A stretch of DNA of 64,000 bases from Deltaproteobacteria bacterium (GTDB lineage Bacteria; Desulfobacterota; Binatia; UBA9968): the NCBI GenBank assembly GCA_016874755.1, contig VGTH01000009.1:4933-68932 (forward strand), written 5' to 3'. Shown piece after piece: positions 3,381 to 57,379 of the stretch. The translations under genes were made by a program, and so were the position numbers. The notes under the pieces are model-generated. The model ran no database searches and was not told the DNA's origin. It was given only the letters and a program-made list of their open reading frames with translations. Positions within the stretch are counted from its first letter, which is position 1. Each line of letters starts with the position of its first letter.

Positions 3381-4871
3381 ATGGGCCTGGAAAACCTACT
3401 ACTCGGCTTCCAGATCGCGATCACGCCGTACAATATTTTCGTGGCGGTCATGGGCATTCTGCTCGGCACCGTCATCGGTGTTTTGCCGGGCCTGGGCGGC
3501 GCCAATGGCGTGGCGATACTTTTGCCCGTGACCTTCGCCATGCCGCCGACTTCGGGAATCATTCTGCTAACCTCGATCTACTGGGGTGCCCTCTTCGGCG
3601 GCGCCATCACCTCGGTGCTTTTTAACATTCCCGGCGAGCCCTGGTCGGTGGCGACAACGTTCGACGGCTACCCGATGGCGCGCCAGGGCTTGGGTGGCCA
3701 GGCGCTCACAGCGGCGTTTACGTCGTCATTCATTGGCGCGTTGTTTTCGATTCTCCTCATCACCTTTTTCGCGCCGCTTTTGGCCGAAGTTGCGCTCAAA
3801 TTCGGCCCGGCGGAATTTTTCGCCATACAACTTCTCACCTTCTCCAGTTTCGTCGGCCTCGGCGGCAGCAATCCGCTCAAGTCACTGGTTTCAATCTTGA
3901 TCGGCTTTATCCTCGCCGCGGTGGGGTTGGATATTGTCACCGGCCAATTGCGCTTGACCTTTGGTTTCACCGGCTTGATGAAAGGGTTCGATTTTATCAT
4001 CGCCGTCATCGGCCTGTTCGGCATCGGCGAAATTCTTTTGAGCGTCGAAGAAGGCTTGAGCTTCAAAGGCACCAAGACCGGCATGAACTTGCGGGTTGTC
4101 TTCGACACCTGGAAAGAGCTGCCAGGCTACTGGCGCACCTTTCTGCGCAGCTCCTTCATCGGGTTTTGGATGGGCTTCAAACCGGGCGGCGCAACGCCGG
4201 CGTCGTTCATGAGCTACGCCTTCGCCAAACGCTTTTCCAAAAACAGCGCCAACTTCGGCAAGGGTGAGATCGAGGGCGTAGTTGCGCCGGAGACTGCGGC
4301 ACACTCGGCTGGCATCGCAGCGATGTTGCCGATGATTACCCTGGGCATTCCCGGCTCGCCCACGGCCGCGGTGATGCTCGGCGGTCTGATCATCTGGGGT
4401 TTGCAGCCCGGCCCCATGTTGTTCACCGAAAAACCGGACTTCGTCTGGGGCCTGATCGCCAGCATGTATACCGGCAACATCATTGGCGTCTTGATGGTGC
4501 TGGCGTTTGTGCCGCTCTTTGCGGCCATCCTGCGCATTCCATTTGCGATCTTGACGCCGCTGATCGTGATCGTCTGCGCCATCGGCGCCTACGCGGTCAA
4601 CGGCCGCATGCTCGACGTTTGGTATATGCTGGGGTTCGGCGTTATCGGCTACGTCTTCAAGAAACTCGACTATCCAATCGCGCCGCTCGTGCTGGCGCTG
4701 GTGCTTGGCGATTTGGCTGAGAGCGCCTTGCGTCAGAGCTTGATCATCTCACAAGGCTCATTGGCAATATTCTTCACCCGCCCCATAGCCGGAGCGATCA
4801 CCGCGGCGGCCATATTCTTTTTCGTCATGCCGCTGCTGGGCCCCTGGTGGAAGCGGTTCAAAGAACGCTGA
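3381..4871 (+). CDS. tctA: Tripartite tricarboxylate transporter permease TctA
   Basis: 496-aa polytopic membrane protein with TctA-family motifs (GVLPGLGGANGVAILLPVTF, MLPMITLGIPGSPTAAVMLGGL). Confidence 0.9.
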   Translation: MGLENLLLGFQIAITPYNIFVAVMGILLGTVIGVLPGLGGANGVAILLPVTFAMPPTSGIILLTSIYWGALFGGAITSVLFNIPGEPWSVATTFDGYPMARQGLGGQALTAAFTSSFIGALFSILLITFFAPLLAEVALKFGPAEFFAIQLLTFSSFVGLGGSNPLKSLVSILIGFILAAVGLDIVTGQLRLTFGFTGLMKGFDFIIAVIGLFGIGEILLSVEEGLSFKGTKTGMNLRVVFDTWKELPGYWRTFLRSSFIGFWMGFKPGGATPASFMSYAFAKRFSKNSANFGKGEIEGVVAPETAAHSAGIAAMLPMITLGIPGSPTAAVMLGGLIIWGLQPGPMLFTEKPDFVWGLIASMYTGNIIGVLMVLAFVPLFAAILRIPFAILTPLIVIVCAIGAYAVNGRMLDVWYMLGFGVIGYVFKKLDYPIAPLVLALVLGDLAESALRQSLIISQGSLAIFFTRPIAGAITAAAIFFFVMPLLGPWWKRFKER

Positions 4872-4872
4872 G

Positions 4873-5721
4873 TCACACCTCTTTTTTCAACACGAGAATA
4901 TCTTGGTGGCCGTTCACTCCGCGTAGAATGTAGTCCACAATGGTAAAATACTTCGCGAAGTTCTCGATCACATACTCCTTGAGGTGAAACGTCGACTGAT
5001 ACCAATCCGGAAAGGCCTCTTTCCAATAATCGTCGACCACGAATAAGATGCCATCCCGCTTGACCTGCGCGATCAGTTTCGCATTGAGCTGTCTCCACAC
5101 ATGCTCACCGTGTAGCGTGAGCAGCACCACCCCCGCCGGCCGGGTCACGCGCCGCAGCTCTTCCAGCCAACGAAACTGAAACTCCTCATTGAGATGCGTG
5201 AAGATCGACACCGCATAGATCAGATCGAAAGTATCATCGGCATAGGGGAGCGGAGGCAACGGCCGATTGACGCTAAACGTGCCCCAGCGATAGTTCTCTT
5301 GACACCAGCGGATCGCCTCGCCGTCGATATCCGTGCCATAGAAAGCCGTGCTGAGCGCCAGGTCCCACCAAATGAAAGTCCGACCACAGCCGCAGCCAAA
5401 ATCCAATATGCTCTGAAAAGAAGAGATCTCGCGGCCCTGGCTCCGCAGCGCGGCGCTAAGACCTTCACTGCACTTACGCCCCTTATTGAGGAACATATCT
5501 GCGCTGTTCTCGCCGCTCACACGCTGGCGCAACGACGCCGGCGGCAGCGCAACGATCCCTTTGCGCTTGAGATGCGCCCGGTTGGGAATTGCTTGTAGCC
5601 GGTGTTTGGGAATGTCCCAAAGCTCAGCGAGCCACAACCAAACGGAACGACGTATTCCGCTCCATGGTTGGCGCAGTACGGCACGCAGGCGTTGATAACT
5701 CTTTGGGGCAATCTCAATCAT
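4873..5721 (-). CDS. Class I SAM-dependent methyltransferase
   Basis: 282 aa; SAM-binding motif ILDFGCGCGRT and acidic motif-II region. Confidence 0.75.
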   Translation of the reverse strand: MIEIAPKSYQRLRAVLRQPWSGIRRSVWLWLAELWDIPKHRLQAIPNRAHLKRKGIVALPPASLRQRVSGENSADMFLNKGRKCSEGLSAALRSQGREISSFQSILDFGCGCGRTFIWWDLALSTAFYGTDIDGEAIRWCQENYRWGTFSVNRPLPPLPYADDTFDLIYAVSIFTHLNEEFQFRWLEELRRVTRPAGVVLLTLHGEHVWRQLNAKLIAQVKRDGILFVVDDYWKEAFPDWYQSTFHLKEYVIENFAKYFTIVDYILRGVNGHQDILVLKKEV

Positions 5722-52238: not shown

Positions 52239-52244
52239 CCAAAA

Positions 52245-52335
52245 ATGGGGTGATGGAGTATCGGAGTGATGGAGTGTTGGAGTGTTGGGTTTTCGGAACC
52301 CATTACTCCACGACTCCAACACTCCATCACTCCGG
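52245..52335 (+). repeat. Long imperfect hairpin built from GGAGTGWT tandem units, immediately 3' of the MetE-like gene
   Basis: GGAGTATCGGAGTGATGGAGTGTTGGAGTGTTGGGTT ttcgg AACCCATTACTCCACGACTCCAACACTCCATCACTCC. Confidence 0.5.
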
Positions 52336-52500
52336 AATGCCTCGGTCAACTTGCCGGTGAAAACTTCATCAGATGACTTTGAGTCGTACCCACCCCAGCG
52401 GCGGCCTCGGTGCTGCTCTTGATGATGCTGCGCGTTTCCGGGCTGTAATAGTAAGTTGACGTGCTTGTACCGGAATTGGCACGGTTGGCGCGGTCAGTTT

Positions 52501-52972
52501 TCACAACTTATAGGCTTTGAAATCGCCCGCCGGCACGGTCACCTGTTCTATGCCAACGACATTCACCTCCACAGATCGTGATTGATCTTGCCGCGCGCCG
52601 GCAGGTCGGGTTTTATACTCGTAGCTCCACTTCTGGCCAACTGAAAGGGGGAACTTCAAATCCTGTCGTTGCTCGCTCCTGCCGATCCATCGCAGCGTCG
52701 TTTGACCTGGCCCATCGGCTTGTATCGGGACCTCTGTTTTTTGATTTCCCTCGATCTGAGAGATTCGCGGTTGCCCCTGCACGATCGTAATCCCAATAGT
52801 TTTCTCCAGCGTTGCGGTCGAAGAGACCAGCTGATTTTCACGGCTTATTTCAATCCGCCAAGTATCACCGTCCTTATGAACCCGGTGCCGATGCCACATC
52901 GTTGCCGAGAACAACATTGGCTTGAGCACTTACGAATAATCCCATCAACAGTACTCTCACGATTTTCATTGC
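52501..52972 (-). pseudogene. Small secreted protein gene split by a frameshift between signal peptide and mature domain
   Basis: MKIVRVLLMGLFVSAQA... signal peptide (start 52972) reads in a different frame from the 142-aa body ORF (52501-52929). Confidence 0.4.
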
Positions 52973-53151
52973 TTTCTCCTCTCGCATTCGGTTAGTGAGC
53001 GCGCACAAAGTCATGCCGCTCATGCCAGTAATCACTGCCAACGTGCACTTACTTCACACGGACGCGTCGTTGCCGCGAAGCACTGAGCAAGAGCGTTGCC
53101 AACCGATGGGATACTGGAAGGAAAACTACAACTGCTTGATTTAGCGAGACT

Positions 53152-54756
53152 ATGCGTGCAGTAGCGGAGGTAAAGTGTATTCGCTTTTCTATTTCTGCAG
53201 CCTTGGTTTACGTTGCTGACAACAATGAAGCCGCAACGGAGTCAACGATTGCGAAACAAGCTGTTTCACTATTTGTGAGGCAAGGTTTTCGCCCAAGCAT
53301 CAGTTGGCGCAGCTCGCGGGCGACCGGCTGTTTGAATGCGACTTTCTATGCGTCGGAAAGCGAGCAACTAGACAGGGTTCTAGGTTTGAGCAACGGGCTC
53401 GATCCCGAGTTCGTCGCCAAGACCGCGGTCTATTGCCGCGAGCAAAGCCTCATGAAGGACATGCCGGCGCTGTTGTGCGCGTCGTTGTCGACTCGCGACA
53501 CTGAGTTGATGCAGGCAACCTTCGTTCGTGTCATCGACAACGGCAAGATGCTGCGCAACCTCGTGCAGATCCTGCGCTCTGGCGCCGTCGGTCGGAAGTC
53601 TTTGGGCACGGCGCCTAAGCGTCTGGTGCAAAGCTGGTTCGACCGTCAAGATGAGAGCGACTTGTTCCGCGCCGCCATCGGGCAGGATCCGTCCATCGAA
53701 GATGTGATCAAGATGGTGCATCCGAAGCCGAAGACTGAGGAGCAGGAAGCTCTGTACGGCTACCTGTTGGGGCGTTCGCACGATGCTGAGTCGCTGCCGG
53801 CTGTAGTTCGTGCGTGCGAGGCTTTCAAGGCGGGTGATACCACCGAGGTTCCCGACGTGCCGTTTATGAAGTTGACCGCGGTGGACTTGAGCGATTTGGC
53901 TTGGAAGAAAATCGCTGAGCGCGCTTCATGGCAGACCACCCGCATGAACTTGAACACCTTTGCTCGCCACGGCGTATTTGCCGATGCGGCTTTGGTGGAA
54001 AGGATCGCGGCGCGCTTGCGCGATCCGAAAGCGATCCGCAAGGCGCGGGCATTTCCGTATCAGTTGATGGTGGCCTACACCACGGCCGATGCAGCAATTC
54101 CTGGAGCGATCCCCGAGGCGTTGCAGGACGCCATGGAAGTGGCGATCGCAAACGTGCCCTGCTTCGCCGGCAAGGTCTACGTCTGCCCGGATGTGTCGGG
54201 TTTGATGTCGAGCGCGATCACCGGCTACCGCAAGGGTGCAACCAGCGCCGTGCGGGCGATCGATGTCGCGGCGCTGGTCGCCGCCGCGGTGGTGCGCAAG
54301 AATCCGTCGGCGGCGGTCTTGCCCTTTGAGCAGGACGTCGTGCCGTTGGCGCTCAACCCGCGCGATAGCGTGATAACCAATGCGGCCAAGCTCGCTGCCA
54401 TCGGCGGCGGTGGGACCAACTGCAGCGCGCCGTTGGCGCAGTTGAACGAGCGCAAAGCCAAAGGTGATCTGGTGATCTTCGTCTCCGATAACGAGGCGTG
54501 GATCGACGCAGGCCATGGCCGCGGCACAGCAACGATGGCCGAGTGGCAGCGCTTCAAGGCGCGCAACCCGGCGGCAAAGTTGGTCTGCATCGACTTGCAG
54601 CCGTACGCCACGACCCAAGCGCAGGAGCGCGCAGATATTTTGAATATCGGCGGCGGCTTCTCGGATGCGGTATTCGACGTGATCGCGCGCTTTGCGCAAG
54701 GTTCACTGAACGCCGATCATTGGGTCGGTGAGATCGAAGCCGTGAGTTTGAATTAA
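53152..54756 (+). CDS. rsr: Ro60-related protein Rsr (TROVE domain + C-terminal vWA/MIDAS)
   Basis: 534 aa; TROVE core (...LVQSWFDRQDESDLFRAAIGQDPSIEDVIKMVHPKP...), vWA with DVSGLMSS MIDAS motif; Deinococcus-Rsr-like length. Confidence 0.85.
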   Translation: MRAVAEVKCIRFSISAALVYVADNNEAATESTIAKQAVSLFVRQGFRPSISWRSSRATGCLNATFYASESEQLDRVLGLSNGLDPEFVAKTAVYCREQSLMKDMPALLCASLSTRDTELMQATFVRVIDNGKMLRNLVQILRSGAVGRKSLGTAPKRLVQSWFDRQDESDLFRAAIGQDPSIEDVIKMVHPKPKTEEQEALYGYLLGRSHDAESLPAVVRACEAFKAGDTTEVPDVPFMKLTAVDLSDLAWKKIAERASWQTTRMNLNTFARHGVFADAALVERIAARLRDPKAIRKARAFPYQLMVAYTTADAAIPGAIPEALQDAMEVAIANVPCFAGKVYVCPDVSGLMSSAITGYRKGATSAVRAIDVAALVAAAVVRKNPSAAVLPFEQDVVPLALNPRDSVITNAAKLAAIGGGGTNCSAPLAQLNERKAKGDLVIFVSDNEAWIDAGHGRGTATMAEWQRFKARNPAAKLVCIDLQPYATTQAQERADILNIGGGFSDAVFDVIARFAQGSLNADHWVGEIEAVSLN

Positions 54757-54767
54757 CTTTAACCGGG

Positions 54768-54827
54768 GCTGAATGCAGTCGAAACTACATTTGCGACATG
54801 TTCTGTCTCGACGACAAACTTGTCAGC
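54768..54827 (+). ncRNA. Short Y-RNA-like element (stem only, no tRNA-like insert), 12 nt after rsr stop
   Basis: GCUGA-AUGCA-GUCGA...UCGAC-GACAAACUUG-UCAGC: same two-helix / asymmetric-loop architecture as the two downstream elements with compensatory helix changes. Confidence 0.4.
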
Positions 54828-54840
54828 TCCGATAAACCCA

Positions 54841-54875
54841 GGGCGACCCACCGGTCGCCCCCACGAAAATCGTGG
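54841..54875. repeat. REP-like palindrome GGGCGACCcaccGGTCGCCC plus adjacent CCACGAaaaTCGTGG hairpin
   Basis: Same palindrome family as 26670-26689, 40491-40510, 50827-50846 and (reverse orientation, compensatory G>A/C>T) 54953-54973. Confidence 0.6.
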
Positions 54876-54988
54876 CGCCGAATGCTGTTGGGATTACATC
54901 ACAACCCTAGTACGGATGTCTCAACAAAAACTTGTCGGCCCAGAAACTTGTAGGGGCAACCGGCGGGTTGCCCTCAGGGATGCACGTA

Positions 54989-55096
54989 GCGAATGCCGAA
55001 GATAACTACATGGGTCGCGGGTTCGACTCCCCCTGGCTCCGTCAAACGGGCCATAGCTCAGCGGGAGAGCAATGTTTCCTTCAACAATTTGTCGCC
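54989..55096 (+). ncRNA. yrlA: YrlA-like Y RNA with circularly permuted tRNA-mimic domain
   Basis: T-arm GCGGG-UUCGACU-CCCCC (55017-55033), loop-closed acceptor-like stem UGGCUCC/GGGCCA, UA, D-arm GCUC-AGCGGGA-GAGC (55056-55070), 5-nt variable loop GGGUC, flanking ACAU/AUGU helix and GCGA..GAAG / CUUC..UCGC outer stem; lies between rsr and rtcB. Confidence 0.65.
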
Positions 55097-55150
55097 ACTA
55101 AATGCGGTTAGAAAGAATGGTGCGAAAAGCGATAGAATATTGAAACTAGC

Positions 55151-55270
55151 GGCGAATGCCGAAGCAACTGCATGGCCTCGCGGGTCTTCGGGTGCAAGTC
55201 CTGAAGCGCAGTCAACTGCGCTAGCTCAGGACAGAGCAACGAGAAAACGCTTCTTCAAGAACTTGTCGCC
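55151..55270 (+). ncRNA. Second, more degenerate Y-RNA-like element with tRNA-like D-arm and extended T-arm analogue
   Basis: Same termini as element 1 (GGCGAAUGCCGAAG ... CUUCAAGAACUUGUCGCC), D-arm GCUC-AGGACA-GAGC preceded by UA and loop-closed helix CGCAG-ucaa-CUGCG, 7-bp stem CUUCGGG-UGCAAGU-CCUGAAG. Confidence 0.5.
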
Positions 55271-55285
55271 GCCCGTGGGGGAAAT

Positions 55286-56514
55286 ATGTCAGAGAGCAAC
55301 TACAACCTGATTCAGCCAGAGAATGGCGTGCCCATCAAGGCCTGGACCAAGGGCGTCGCCATTGAAGGTTCAGCGGAGAAGCAGCTGCGCAACGTCGCGA
55401 CCATGCCGTTCGTCTACAAATGGGTGGCGGCGATGCCGGACGTGCATTGGGGCATCGGCGCTACTGTAGGGAGTGTGATCCCCACCAAAGGCGCGATCAT
55501 CCCAGCCGCCGTCGGCGTCGATATCGGCTGCGGCATGATGGCGGTGCGAACAACGTTGAACGCCAGCCAACTGCCAGACAACCTGCGCAGCGTGCGCTCG
55601 GCAATTGAAAAGGCGTGCCGCACGGACGCACCAACAACGGGCGCAAGGGCGACCGCGGCGCGTGGGGCGAAATCCCCAAGCGCCAGATCGGCGTGTGGCG
55701 CCAGCTCGAGATGGGCTACAAAGCGATCACGGAAAAGTATCCAAACTTAGATCGCGGCAATGATGTGAATCACTTGGGCACCCTCGGCACCGGCAACCAC
55801 TTCATCGAAGTGTGCCTGGACGAAAGTGACCGGGTTTGGTTCATGCTCCATAGCGGGTCACGCGGCGTCGGCAATCGCATCGGGACCTTTTTCATCGATC
55901 TGGCGCGCAACGATATGCGCAAGCATATCGCGAATCTGCCGGATCGCGACCTCGCTTACTTCGAAGAAGGCAGCGAGCACTTCGAAGACTATGTGGATGC
56001 CGTGCACTGGGCGCAGGAGTTTGCCATGTACAACCGTAAACTGATGATGGAGCAGCTGGTCGAAGCGGTGGAAAATTGCCGCGAGCTGCCGGAGTTTTCA
56101 CTGACTGAAACGGCGGTGAATTGCCATCATAACTACGTCGCCCGCGAAGAGCACTACGGCCATGCCGTGTTCGTCACCCGCAAAGGCGCGGTGCGCGCCG
56201 GCAAGGGCGACATGGGGATTATCCCCGGCAGCATGGGGGCGCGCTCGTACATCGTGCGCGGCCTCGGCAATCTCGAGAGCTTCGAAAGCTGCAGCCACGG
56301 CGCCGGCCGCGCCATGTCGCGCAACGAAGCCAAGCGCCGTTTTACGATTGACGATCACATCAAAGCCACTGCTGGCGTCGAATGCCGAAAAGACGCCAAT
56401 GTTATCGACGAAACCCCAATGGCGTACAAGAACATCGACGATGTCATGAACGCGCAGAAGGATTTAGTCGAGATTGCGCATACGCTGCGGCAGGTGGTGT
56501 GTGTGAAAGGATAG
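55286..56514 (+). pseudogene. rtcB: RNA-splicing ligase RtcB, reading frame broken by 1-nt deletion near 55612 (or sequencing error)
   Basis: ORFs 55286-55750 and 55615-56514 together give a full-length RtcB (..AIEKA|VPHGRTNNGRKGDRGAWGE.., HLGTLGTGNHFIEVCLDE.., SCSHGAGR..); expected GCG GTG CCG is GCG TGC CGC. Confidence 0.8.
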
Positions 56515-56606
56515 GCTTGAGGCGCGAGTTGAAAGGATGAAAGATGAAAGCGGAAGTATGAAAGAAGAGTTCGGACAATTCCACCTTCATAATTCCGCTT
56601 TCATAA

Positions 56607-57379
<773 letters not shown>

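Follow-up and report, generated by a model that had tools for sequence, protein, structure and literature searches.

The nucleotides from 54986 to 55101 on the plus strand of the window, as the whole stretch of 64,000 nucleotides analysed here is called, form a real small RNA gene with a probability of roughly nine in ten; the sequence identifies it as a bacterial Y RNA of the YrlA family, which carries a circularly permuted tRNA-shaped domain. An earlier note, made from the letters alone, had proposed a Y-RNA-like element at this place, in which a tRNA is open at its anticodon loop and has a closed acceptor end; this proposal is supported by the alignment of homologues, by their covariation and by the genomic surroundings. 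The element is preceded, at a distance of 230 nt, by an intact Ro60/Rsr gene in the same orientation (rsr stop at 54756, element start at 54986), and rtcB and rtcA follow it (Table 1). By comparison with the YrlA family, it would very probably be transcribed from the plus strand, downstream of rsr, and its binding to Rsr, its modification and its function may be expected to resemble those of the family.

Table 1. Features of the rsr-Y RNA-rtc region and parts of the YrlA element (window coordinates)
Feature	Coordinates	Strand	Description and evidence
rsr	53152..54756	+	Ro60 orthologue (TROVE and vWA domains), intact; Pfam vWA_Ro60 8e-16, TROVE 5e-6
Y module 1	54766..54832	+	YrlB-like short stem-loop with putative Rsr-binding motif GAAUGC / ACUUGUC, without tRNA-like domain
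GC-rich hairpins	54841..54876	+	two hairpins between modules 1 and 2, without U tract; -24 kcal/mol, z -5.0
Y module 2	54875..54944	+	short stem-loop with putative Rsr-binding motif, without tRNA-like domain; R1 30.5 bits, E 1e-4
Y module 3 (YrlA)	54986..55101	+	GUAGCGAAUGCCGAAGAUAACUACAUGGGUCGCGGGUUCGACUCCCCCUGGCUCCGUCAAACGGGCCAUAGCUCAGCGGGAGAGCAAUGUUUCCUUCAACAAUUUGUCGCCACUAA; putative Rsr-binding stem and tRNA-like effector domain
Outer stem, 5' strand, and loop	54987..54997	+	UAGCGA (putative Rsr-binding stem) and conserved loop AUGCC; covariation, motif
Stem 2, 5' strand, to anticodon-like strand	54998..55011	+	GAAG, A19/A20, conserved CUA, anticodon-like ACAU (55008-55011)
Variable loop	55012..55016	+	GGGUC, with the equivalents of G46, U47 and C48
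T arm	55017..55033	+	GCGGG-UUCGACU-CCCCC; C·C at 50:64-equivalent
Acceptor-like stem-loop	55034..55053	+	UGGCUC(C) / GUCAAA / (C)GGGCCA; 6 bp, G3·U70-equivalent wobble, C·C at 1:72-equivalent
U8-A9 linker, D arm, A26	55054..55071	+	UA (55054-55055); GCUC-AGCGGGA-GAGC (55056-55070); A26 (55071)
3' strands	55072..55097	+	AUGU (55072-55075), UU, CUUC (stem 2), loop AACAAUUUG, UCGCCA (outer stem)
Y module 4	55149..55275	+	second YrlA-like RNA; Rfam YrlA 33 bits, E 2.7e-5; R1 38.8 bits
rtcB	55286..56514	+	1-nt deletion near 55614-55615; frames 55286-55615 and 55609-56511; Pfam RtcB on both ORFs
rtcA remnant	56537..57379	+	Pfam RTC covers only profile positions 126-221

YrlA RNAs were defined by Chen et al. 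(2014, RNA 20:1715, PMC4201824) as RNAs which are encoded within 4 kb of a Ro60 gene on the same strand, start with the 5' motif GNCGAAN0-1G and possess near-invariant T and D stem-loops, which an acceptor-like stem-loop separates, as well as an upstream V region starting with YUAY. The same study describes the arms T, D, AS and V and finds that seven of the tertiary interactions of tRNA are possible, among them a Levitt pair that covaries (PMC4201824), and a crystal structure is available for the YrlA of Salmonella Typhimurium (PDB 6CU1; Wang et al. 2018, 10.1101/312249). The published definition and the crystal structure match the window element feature by feature. The Ro60/TROVE gene is found within about 4 kb on the same strand. 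The 5' strand reads AGCGAAUG at positions 54988-54995, i.e. (G)NCGAAUG with A instead of G as the first base of the motif, which would contact Rsr; this base varies, being G in 63 of 79 homologues, in which CGAAUGC is invariant or more than 90% conserved and UUGUCG of the 3' strand is kept. The outer stem UAGCGA/UCGCCA and the stem GAAG/CUUC surround the internal loop AUGCC / AACAAUUUG; the suggestion that this outer stem and its loop are a candidate Ro60-binding site agrees with the homologue alignment, the covariation and the context. CUAC stands for YUAY before the V loop, followed in YrlA-like order by the T arm, the loop-closed acceptor-like stem, the linker UA and the D arm, and the domain is closed by an anticodon-like stem of 4 bp, in which ACAU (55008-55011) pairs with AUGU (55072-55075). 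All nucleotides that are used for tertiary folding of tRNAs are present, namely U8, A9, A14, G15:C48, the GG of the D loop, A21, G46, G53:C61, U54, U55, C56 and A58. Every coordinate and string given in the earlier note can be found in the sequence, and its claim that the nucleotides for U8-A14, G15-C48 and the G18/G19 contacts are all there holds for the window copy. Its implied novelty, by contrast, is unwarranted: the features are those of YrlA in Chen et al. (PMC4201824), and since the architecture of a permuted tRNA, its tertiary contacts and the module for Ro60 have all been published, the element adds nothing fundamentally new biologically. Within this family, known since 2014, it is an ordinary and slightly degraded copy.

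Judged by its sequence, the element has every feature by which YrlA is recognised, and the only value it falls short of is the Rfam bit threshold. In a permissive E-value scan of positions 54700-55400, the full YrlA model (RF02553) matched 54986-55101 with 56.8 bits (E 3.7e-12), which does not reach the gathering score of 69; at gathering thresholds, Rfam reported no match anywhere in the 64-kb window, and YrlA was seen in the E-value mode only. However, the gathering score is a curation cut-off and not a biological feature, and it is conservative for this clade, because a copy at or above the threshold is present in only 6 of 20 related Rsr loci. With its own covariance model, R1, the window copy scores 121.5 bits. 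Together with the full-length Rfam match, this agrees with the earlier assertion that the element is not a chance match. The prediction that tRNA finders would miss it also proved correct, as ARAGORN and the Rfam tRNA model are silent on the native order. When the domain was un-permuted in silico, with an artificial 7-nt anticodon loop added and the CU bulge removed, ARAGORN called a 75-nt tRNA, both for the window copy and for a close relative. Bona fide YrlA genes of Acidobacteriota-like metagenomic lineages are thus below the Rfam gathering score and invisible to tRNA finders, so that Rsr loci in such genomes look RNA-less unless permissive or clade-specific models are used.

The resemblance to tRNA raises the question of whether the element could belong to a tmRNA of the permuted, two-piece type, or whether it could be a tRNA gene, permuted or split, from which a translating tRNA is made. 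This is extremely improbable. The Rfam tmRNA model does match the T arm and the 3' strand of the acceptor-like stem (12.9 bits, E 0.005), a G3·U70-type wobble is present in the acceptor-like stem, and ARAGORN called a permuted 'tmRNA*' over the homologous YrlA of one related locus (L022). However, 12.9 bits is far under the tmRNA gathering score of 47, ARAGORN finds neither a tmRNA nor a tRNA in the window, the domain has no anticodon loop, the window copy lacks a CCA, and the domain sits inside a conserved Y-RNA stem with the Rsr motif, adjoining rsr in 80 loci. A permuted tmRNA was rejected on the tmRNA score and the missing ARAGORN call, and a canonical tRNA on the permuted order, the loop-closed acceptor end, the missing anticodon loop and the silence of both tRNA finders. 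The call over the L022 YrlA is a miscall.

Further support for a YrlA RNA comes from its homologues. For the comparison, 80 Rsr loci were taken from GTDB genomes and searched with a covariance model, which was built from the window copy and two relatives with a hand-written structure; a search of the loci for candidates with regular expressions was discarded as too loose, since true tRNAs matched as well. The model yielded 156 matches at E<1e-3, 79 of them at E<1e-9. Nearly all of the 156 matches are located on the rsr strand and most of them near the gene, often in tandem with up to four to six copies. The covariance-model alignment was used; with MAFFT, the 3' strands of stem 2 and of the anticodon-like stem came out of register, because the variable arms differ in length. 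In the 79 homologues, 96.4% of the pair cells are paired, compared to 75.6% after column shuffling and 35-53% in slid controls. An alignment fitted to a covariance model favours the structure, but this explains neither the number of distinct pair types nor the result of the slid controls. Double-sided, compensatory changes occur at 27 of the 32 pairs, a number reached by none of 500 shuffles. The outer stem (helix 1) is paired in 99.6% of the cells with compensatory changes at five of its six pairs, and helices 2 to 4 reach 99.0% (stem 2), 99.4% and 75.6%, the last value being low because the lengths of the variable arms differ. The T stem (helix 5) is paired to 99.5% and shows compensatory changes at four of five pairs, the acceptor-like stem (helix 6) to 97.1% with such changes at all seven, and the D stem is always paired (100%) and almost invariant.

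The nucleotides that would hold the L shape together are conserved to a similar degree. U8, A14, G53, U54, C56 and C61 are found in all 79 homologues, A9, A58 and G46 in 78 each, A21 in 77, G18 in 76, U55 and Y48 in 75 each, and U47 in 72. The Levitt pair 15:48 covaries, being G:C in 41 and A:U in 32 of the 79 homologues; covariation is seen for every helix and for this tertiary pair. The near-invariant tertiary nucleotides and the Levitt covariation reproduce the argument by which an L-shaped fold was deduced in the literature. A chance resemblance to tRNA arms in non-functional intergenic DNA, with which a single-sequence fold z-score of about 0 for the window copy would be compatible, is refuted by the Rfam match, the covariance-model matches in 80 loci and the covariation; with an E-value of 3.7e-12 to a curated family and with conservation and compensatory changes in 79 homologues, for which both controls stay below the observed values, its probability is negligible.

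Although the family assignment is firm, the window copy is not a flawless representative, and calling the tRNA mimic 'near-perfect', as had been done, overstates the case. It carries a C·C at the 50:64-equivalent of the T stem, which is found in no other of the 79 homologues, a C·C at the 1:72-equivalent, which reduces the acceptor-like stem to 6 bp instead of the 7 bp seen in most relatives, and an A·C in the outer stem; none of the other homologues examined has as many mismatches. The minimum free energy (MFE) fold predicted by ViennaRNA (-31.2 kcal/mol) contains an alternative GGGUCG/CGACUC helix in place of the T arm, and enforcing the T arm yields -27.8 kcal/mol. In four relatives, the T, acceptor-like and D arms form spontaneously at -41 to -45 kcal/mol. 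Of the folding and alignment check that had been proposed for the arm assignments, the alignment half held, with T and D arms conserved in the 79 homologues, whereas folding of the single sequence, with the T arm absent from the MFE fold and a z-score of about 0, is uninformative for this copy. Sequencing errors do not account for the mismatches, because the YrlA sequence is identical in three independent assemblies. With three helix mismatches, and with broken rtc genes in its operon, the window YrlA may be under relaxed constraint.

The operon itself shows clear signs of decay. In the closest relatives (L084-L089), a divergent rtcR, a sigma-54-type promoter (TTGGCAC/T-N5-ATGCT), rsr, three Y modules, rtcB encoding a protein of 409 aa and rtcA follow each other, and the order of the modules between rsr and rtcB is the same in the closest relatives, whose Rsr proteins are 72-80% identical. 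Neither rtcR or remnants of it nor the sigma-54 promoter was found in the window. tblastn searches with intact 409-aa RtcB homologues split over frames 2 and 1, and the nucleotide alignment reveals a missing base; the rtcB sequence is identical in the independent assemblies that span it (L001, L002). The tblastn match to rtcA is divided over frames 3 and 2 and leaves part of the query unmatched; the N-terminal part is encoded in a different frame (56613-56783), and some 55 residues are lost. The gene rsr, on the other hand, has kept every invariant column of an alignment of 28 Rsr sequences. Its true start is probably located about 16 codons downstream of position 53152, because the relatives are 518 aa long. 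The Rsr of the window is 79-83% identical to metagenomic Ro60 proteins, unnamed metagenomic proteins spanning 72-83%; among thousands of homologues, the closest named ones stem from Pyrinomonadaceae/Blastocatellia MAGs (Acidobacteriota) with about 65% identity.

In such surroundings, the YrlA copy could be a decaying relic that is present by descent and no longer fully selected, in an RNA-repair operon that is being lost. The loss of rtcR and of the sigma-54 promoter of the closest relatives, the 1-nt deletion in rtcB and the split, gapped rtcA fit such a decay, as do the T-stem mismatch seen in this one of 79 sequences, the mismatches in the outer stem and at 1:72, and a predicted stability of about 10-14 kcal/mol below that of the relatives. 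This is nevertheless unlikely: rsr is intact down to every invariant residue of the family alignment, the nucleotides for tertiary interactions and the Rsr motif are all present, the flanking Y modules are conserved too, and the identity of the sequence in the three independent assemblies indicates a stable allele. Moreover, single mismatches at 50:64 and 1:72 are also found in functional tRNAs. The Rsr/Y RNA unit appears to be retained while rtcR, rtcB and rtcA decay, and the persistence of rsr and the Y RNAs amid this decay suggests that this unit can be maintained separately from the enzymes of RNA repair.

Four tandem Y modules, two short and two tRNA-like, are located between rsr and rtcB, and GC-rich hairpins separate the first three. 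Module 1 matches the Rfam YrlA model with 19.9 bits, with the tRNA-like part deleted, and has a fold z-score of -3.15; R1 detects the identical copy in L001 with an E-value of 0.003, and the module is conserved in L088. The two hairpins at 54841..54876 contain no terminator-like site and are not conserved in the relatives. Module 2 is conserved in L084, L086 and L088, and module 4 is conserved with compensatory changes in the same three loci. Module 4 possesses the Rsr motif, a canonical D stem and a 6-bp acceptor-like hairpin with a tetraloop; its T-like arm is a variant of 7 bp with the loop UGCAAGU. It is a conserved paralogue, whose T-like loop follows the variant pattern UGNAAGU and whose D loop is altered. 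A scan for sigma-70 promoters and terminators stayed at chance level with no convincing site, and no terminators were detected between the modules. The last point, as well as the position between rsr and rtcB on the coding strand, would also be compatible with a structure that acts in cis as a leader or regulator of the rtcB mRNA, for instance a tRNA-shaped sensor, instead of a separate small RNA. However, homologous elements in relatives are also found upstream of rsr or beside tRNA arrays without rtcB downstream, the rtcB of the window is itself a pseudogene, and the YrlA RNAs of Salmonella and M. smegmatis are discrete, Rsr-bound RNAs, which are processed from a precursor (PMC4201824). A cis-acting leader is thus very unlikely, and a separate YrlA RNA accounts better for these observations.

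By analogy with the characterized systems, the paired 5' and 3' ends of the RNA would form the Rsr (Ro60)-binding module, in which the conserved (G)NCGAAUGC strand would lie opposite CUUGUCG across an asymmetric internal loop. The interior is predicted to fold into an L-shaped tRNA-like module, whose anticodon arm would be replaced by the Y-RNA stem and whose acceptor stem would be closed by a loop. As described for Salmonella and Deinococcus, the RNA might load onto the Rsr ring and either gate Rsr or tether it to a partner, which in both organisms is PNPase; the tRNA-like module would project from Rsr and might recruit the partner or tRNA-modifying enzymes. The Y RNAs of these bacteria are, in addition, substrates of the tRNA enzymes TruB (Psi55) and DusA. 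For Salmonella YrlA, the formation of Psi55 by TruB and of dihydrouridine by DusA has been reported (PMC4201824).

In its genomic setting, the window RNA resembles Salmonella YrlA, as it adjoins rsr on the same strand in the order rsr-Y RNA-rtcB-rtcA, and the 6-bp acceptor-like stem of the window copy is also found there. In contrast to Salmonella YrlA and the RF02553 model, its score stays below the gathering cut-off and its motif begins with A rather than G; the T-stem C·C and the outer-stem A·C are likewise absent from Salmonella YrlA. The operons differ as well: that of the window lacks rtcR, contains broken rtcB and rtcA genes and carries four tandem Y modules as opposed to two in Salmonella. 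Moreover, the window RNA stems from an uncultured lineage whose nearest named Rsr proteins are those of Pyrinomonadaceae/Blastocatellia. With M. smegmatis YrlA, most relatives of the window RNA share the 7-bp acceptor-like stem, whereas the window copy has 6 bp plus a C·C and its closing loop GUCAAA contains no CCA. M. smegmatis produces several Y RNAs from one precursor; these are encoded upstream of rsr without linkage to rtcBA, while the Y RNAs of the window lie between rsr and rtcB. With Yrn1 of Deinococcus radiodurans and with metazoan Y RNAs, the window RNA shares a stem for Ro60 binding, in which the 5' and 3' ends pair, and an interior effector-binding module. Yrn1 also has a T-arm-like stem-loop with a pseudouridine, but its arms are arranged in another orientation and it has no full D arm; metazoan Y RNAs lack the tRNA-like domain and possess a GGUCCGA bulged helix. 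Finally, tmRNAs, including the two-piece permuted ones, and viral tRNA-like structures (TYMV TLS) are L-shaped tRNA mimics with a T-loop/D-loop elbow too, and the wobble at the G3·U70-equivalent is shared with tmRNA. However, the window RNA has no free CCA end, no tag reading frame and no pseudoknots, its acceptor end is closed, and its partner would be Ro60 rather than SmpB.

RNase P cleaves the YrlA of M. smegmatis, which has a 7-bp stem, within its closing loop, and a CCA is then added (PMC4201824). On this precedent, RNase P may likewise cleave the closing loop of the YrlA RNAs of the acidobacterial/verrucomicrobial clade, which would give two-piece, CCA-ended Y RNAs on Rsr; whether these could be charged with alanine is speculation. 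It is tempting to go one step further and to regard the acceptor-like arm of this clade as a true acceptor end of the tRNA-Ala type instead of a mere closed stem, but this is quite doubtful. A comparison of the domain with 148 tRNAs of neighbouring arrays revealed no isotype-specific similarity; the best scores were obtained for Arg, Met and Thr, Ala ranked low, and the likeness to tRNA-Ala is restricted to the acceptor stem. If the arm nevertheless were of the tRNA-Ala type, the window copy with C1·C72, G73 and UCA would be a closed-loop or decayed derivative. The searchable literature contains nothing on a link of Rsr or YrlA to tRNA arrays or to aminoacylation beyond the CCA addition in M. 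smegmatis.

Besides the persistence of rsr amid the decay of the rtc genes, two by-products of the homologue comparison are of note, namely the tRNA-Ala-like and sometimes CCA-encoding acceptor arms and the frequent adjacency of rsr/YrlA and tRNA arrays. A fully paired 7-bp acceptor-like stem is present in 59 of 73 unique homologues, and 21 of the 73, including the window copy, have a G3·U70-type wobble. This wobble goes together with a discriminator-like A (17 of 21 compared to 11 of 52; Fisher p 3e-6, uncorrected for phylogeny). The sequence N-CCA is found exactly at the equivalent of positions 73-76 in 12 of the 73 unique homologues, while shuffling the loops 2000 times gives 1.7 such cases on average and 8 at most. 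The window has no tRNA genes next to rsr; in 39 of the 80 Rsr loci, the 3-kb flanks contain at least five, and up to 21, tRNA genes on the same strand.

In a covariance-model alignment of 79 homologues of the Y RNA YrlA, the acceptor-like arm is mostly 7 bp long; examples are found at L022:4767-4899, L033:3094-3208 and L073:5056-5184. A G3·U70-type wobble is present in 21 of the 73 unique homologues and goes with a discriminator-like A, and N-CCA is located exactly at the position equivalent to 73-76 in 12/73, compared with approximately 1.7 expected. These arms suggest two-piece Y RNAs that could be cleaved by RNase P and might accept alanine.

Between 5 and 21 same-strand tRNA genes adjoin rsr, the gene encoding the Ro60 orthologue Rsr, in 39 of 80 Rsr loci from GTDB genomes (L004-L083; 3 kb flanks), so that a tRNA array ends with rsr/YrlA in roughly half of the relatives. 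In those loci looked at in detail, the array lies in the 3 kb upstream of rsr. The tRNAs of these arrays appear divergent, and CCA is encoded by some of them. No tRNA gene lies in the window itself, and a literature search did not find a paper connecting Rsr with tRNA arrays.

YrlA is surrounded by three further Y-RNA-like modules, all of which carry the same GAAUGC / CUUGUCG Rsr motif (see table). The tRNA-like one has a variant T-like loop, UGCAAGU, a D loop with the sequence AGGACA and a 6-bp, tetraloop-closed acceptor-like hairpin, and is kept in L084, L086 and L088, loci of close relatives. The two hairpins between the modules are not conserved in relatives and may be processing or protective structures.

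Features around YrlA and in the downstream genes (window coordinates)
Feature	Position	Details
Short Y-RNA-like module	54766-54832	no tRNA-like domain
GC-rich hairpin	54841-54876	no U tract; between Y modules 1 and 2; fold z-score -5.0
Short Y-RNA-like module	54875-54944	no tRNA-like domain
GC-rich hairpin	54953-54974	no U tract; between Y modules 2 and 3; fold z-score -2.3
tRNA-like Y module (YrlA paralogue)	55149-55275	
rtcB	55286-56514	break near 55614-55615; two overlapping frames
rtcA	56537-57379	disrupted; N-terminal piece 56613-56783 in another frame

Sequence comparison with intact 409-aa homologues revealed that rtcB is split by a single-base deletion, with 86-91% amino-acid identity on both sides of the break. 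Two independent assemblies spanning the break, L001 and L002, have the same sequence there, which excludes a sequencing error and identifies the break as a true frameshift/pseudogene. The N- and C-terminal parts of rtcA lie in separate frames, and around 55 homologue residues are absent between them.

In the closest relatives (L084, L086 and L088, positions 700-2500), rsr is preceded by a divergent rtcR gene and a sigma-54-type promoter (TTGGCAC/T-N5-ATGCT), whereas the window, compared over 52240-53151, has neither. This region instead holds a Meth_synt_2 gene and a 142-aa ORF (52501-52929, minus strand) without Pfam matches.

In L022, ARAGORN calls a permuted tmRNA ('tmRNA*') at 4744-5249, which overlaps YrlA. 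The call is probably false and prompted by the tRNA-like domain with its permuted order; such calls are a likely source of mis-annotation in YrlA-bearing genomes. Of 20 Rsr loci scanned with Rfam, only 6 reach the gathering score of 69 bits set for YrlA, whereas a clade-specific model detects strong YrlA copies in almost all of them. Thus, in Acidobacteriota and related phyla, the curated threshold calls too few YrlA genes.
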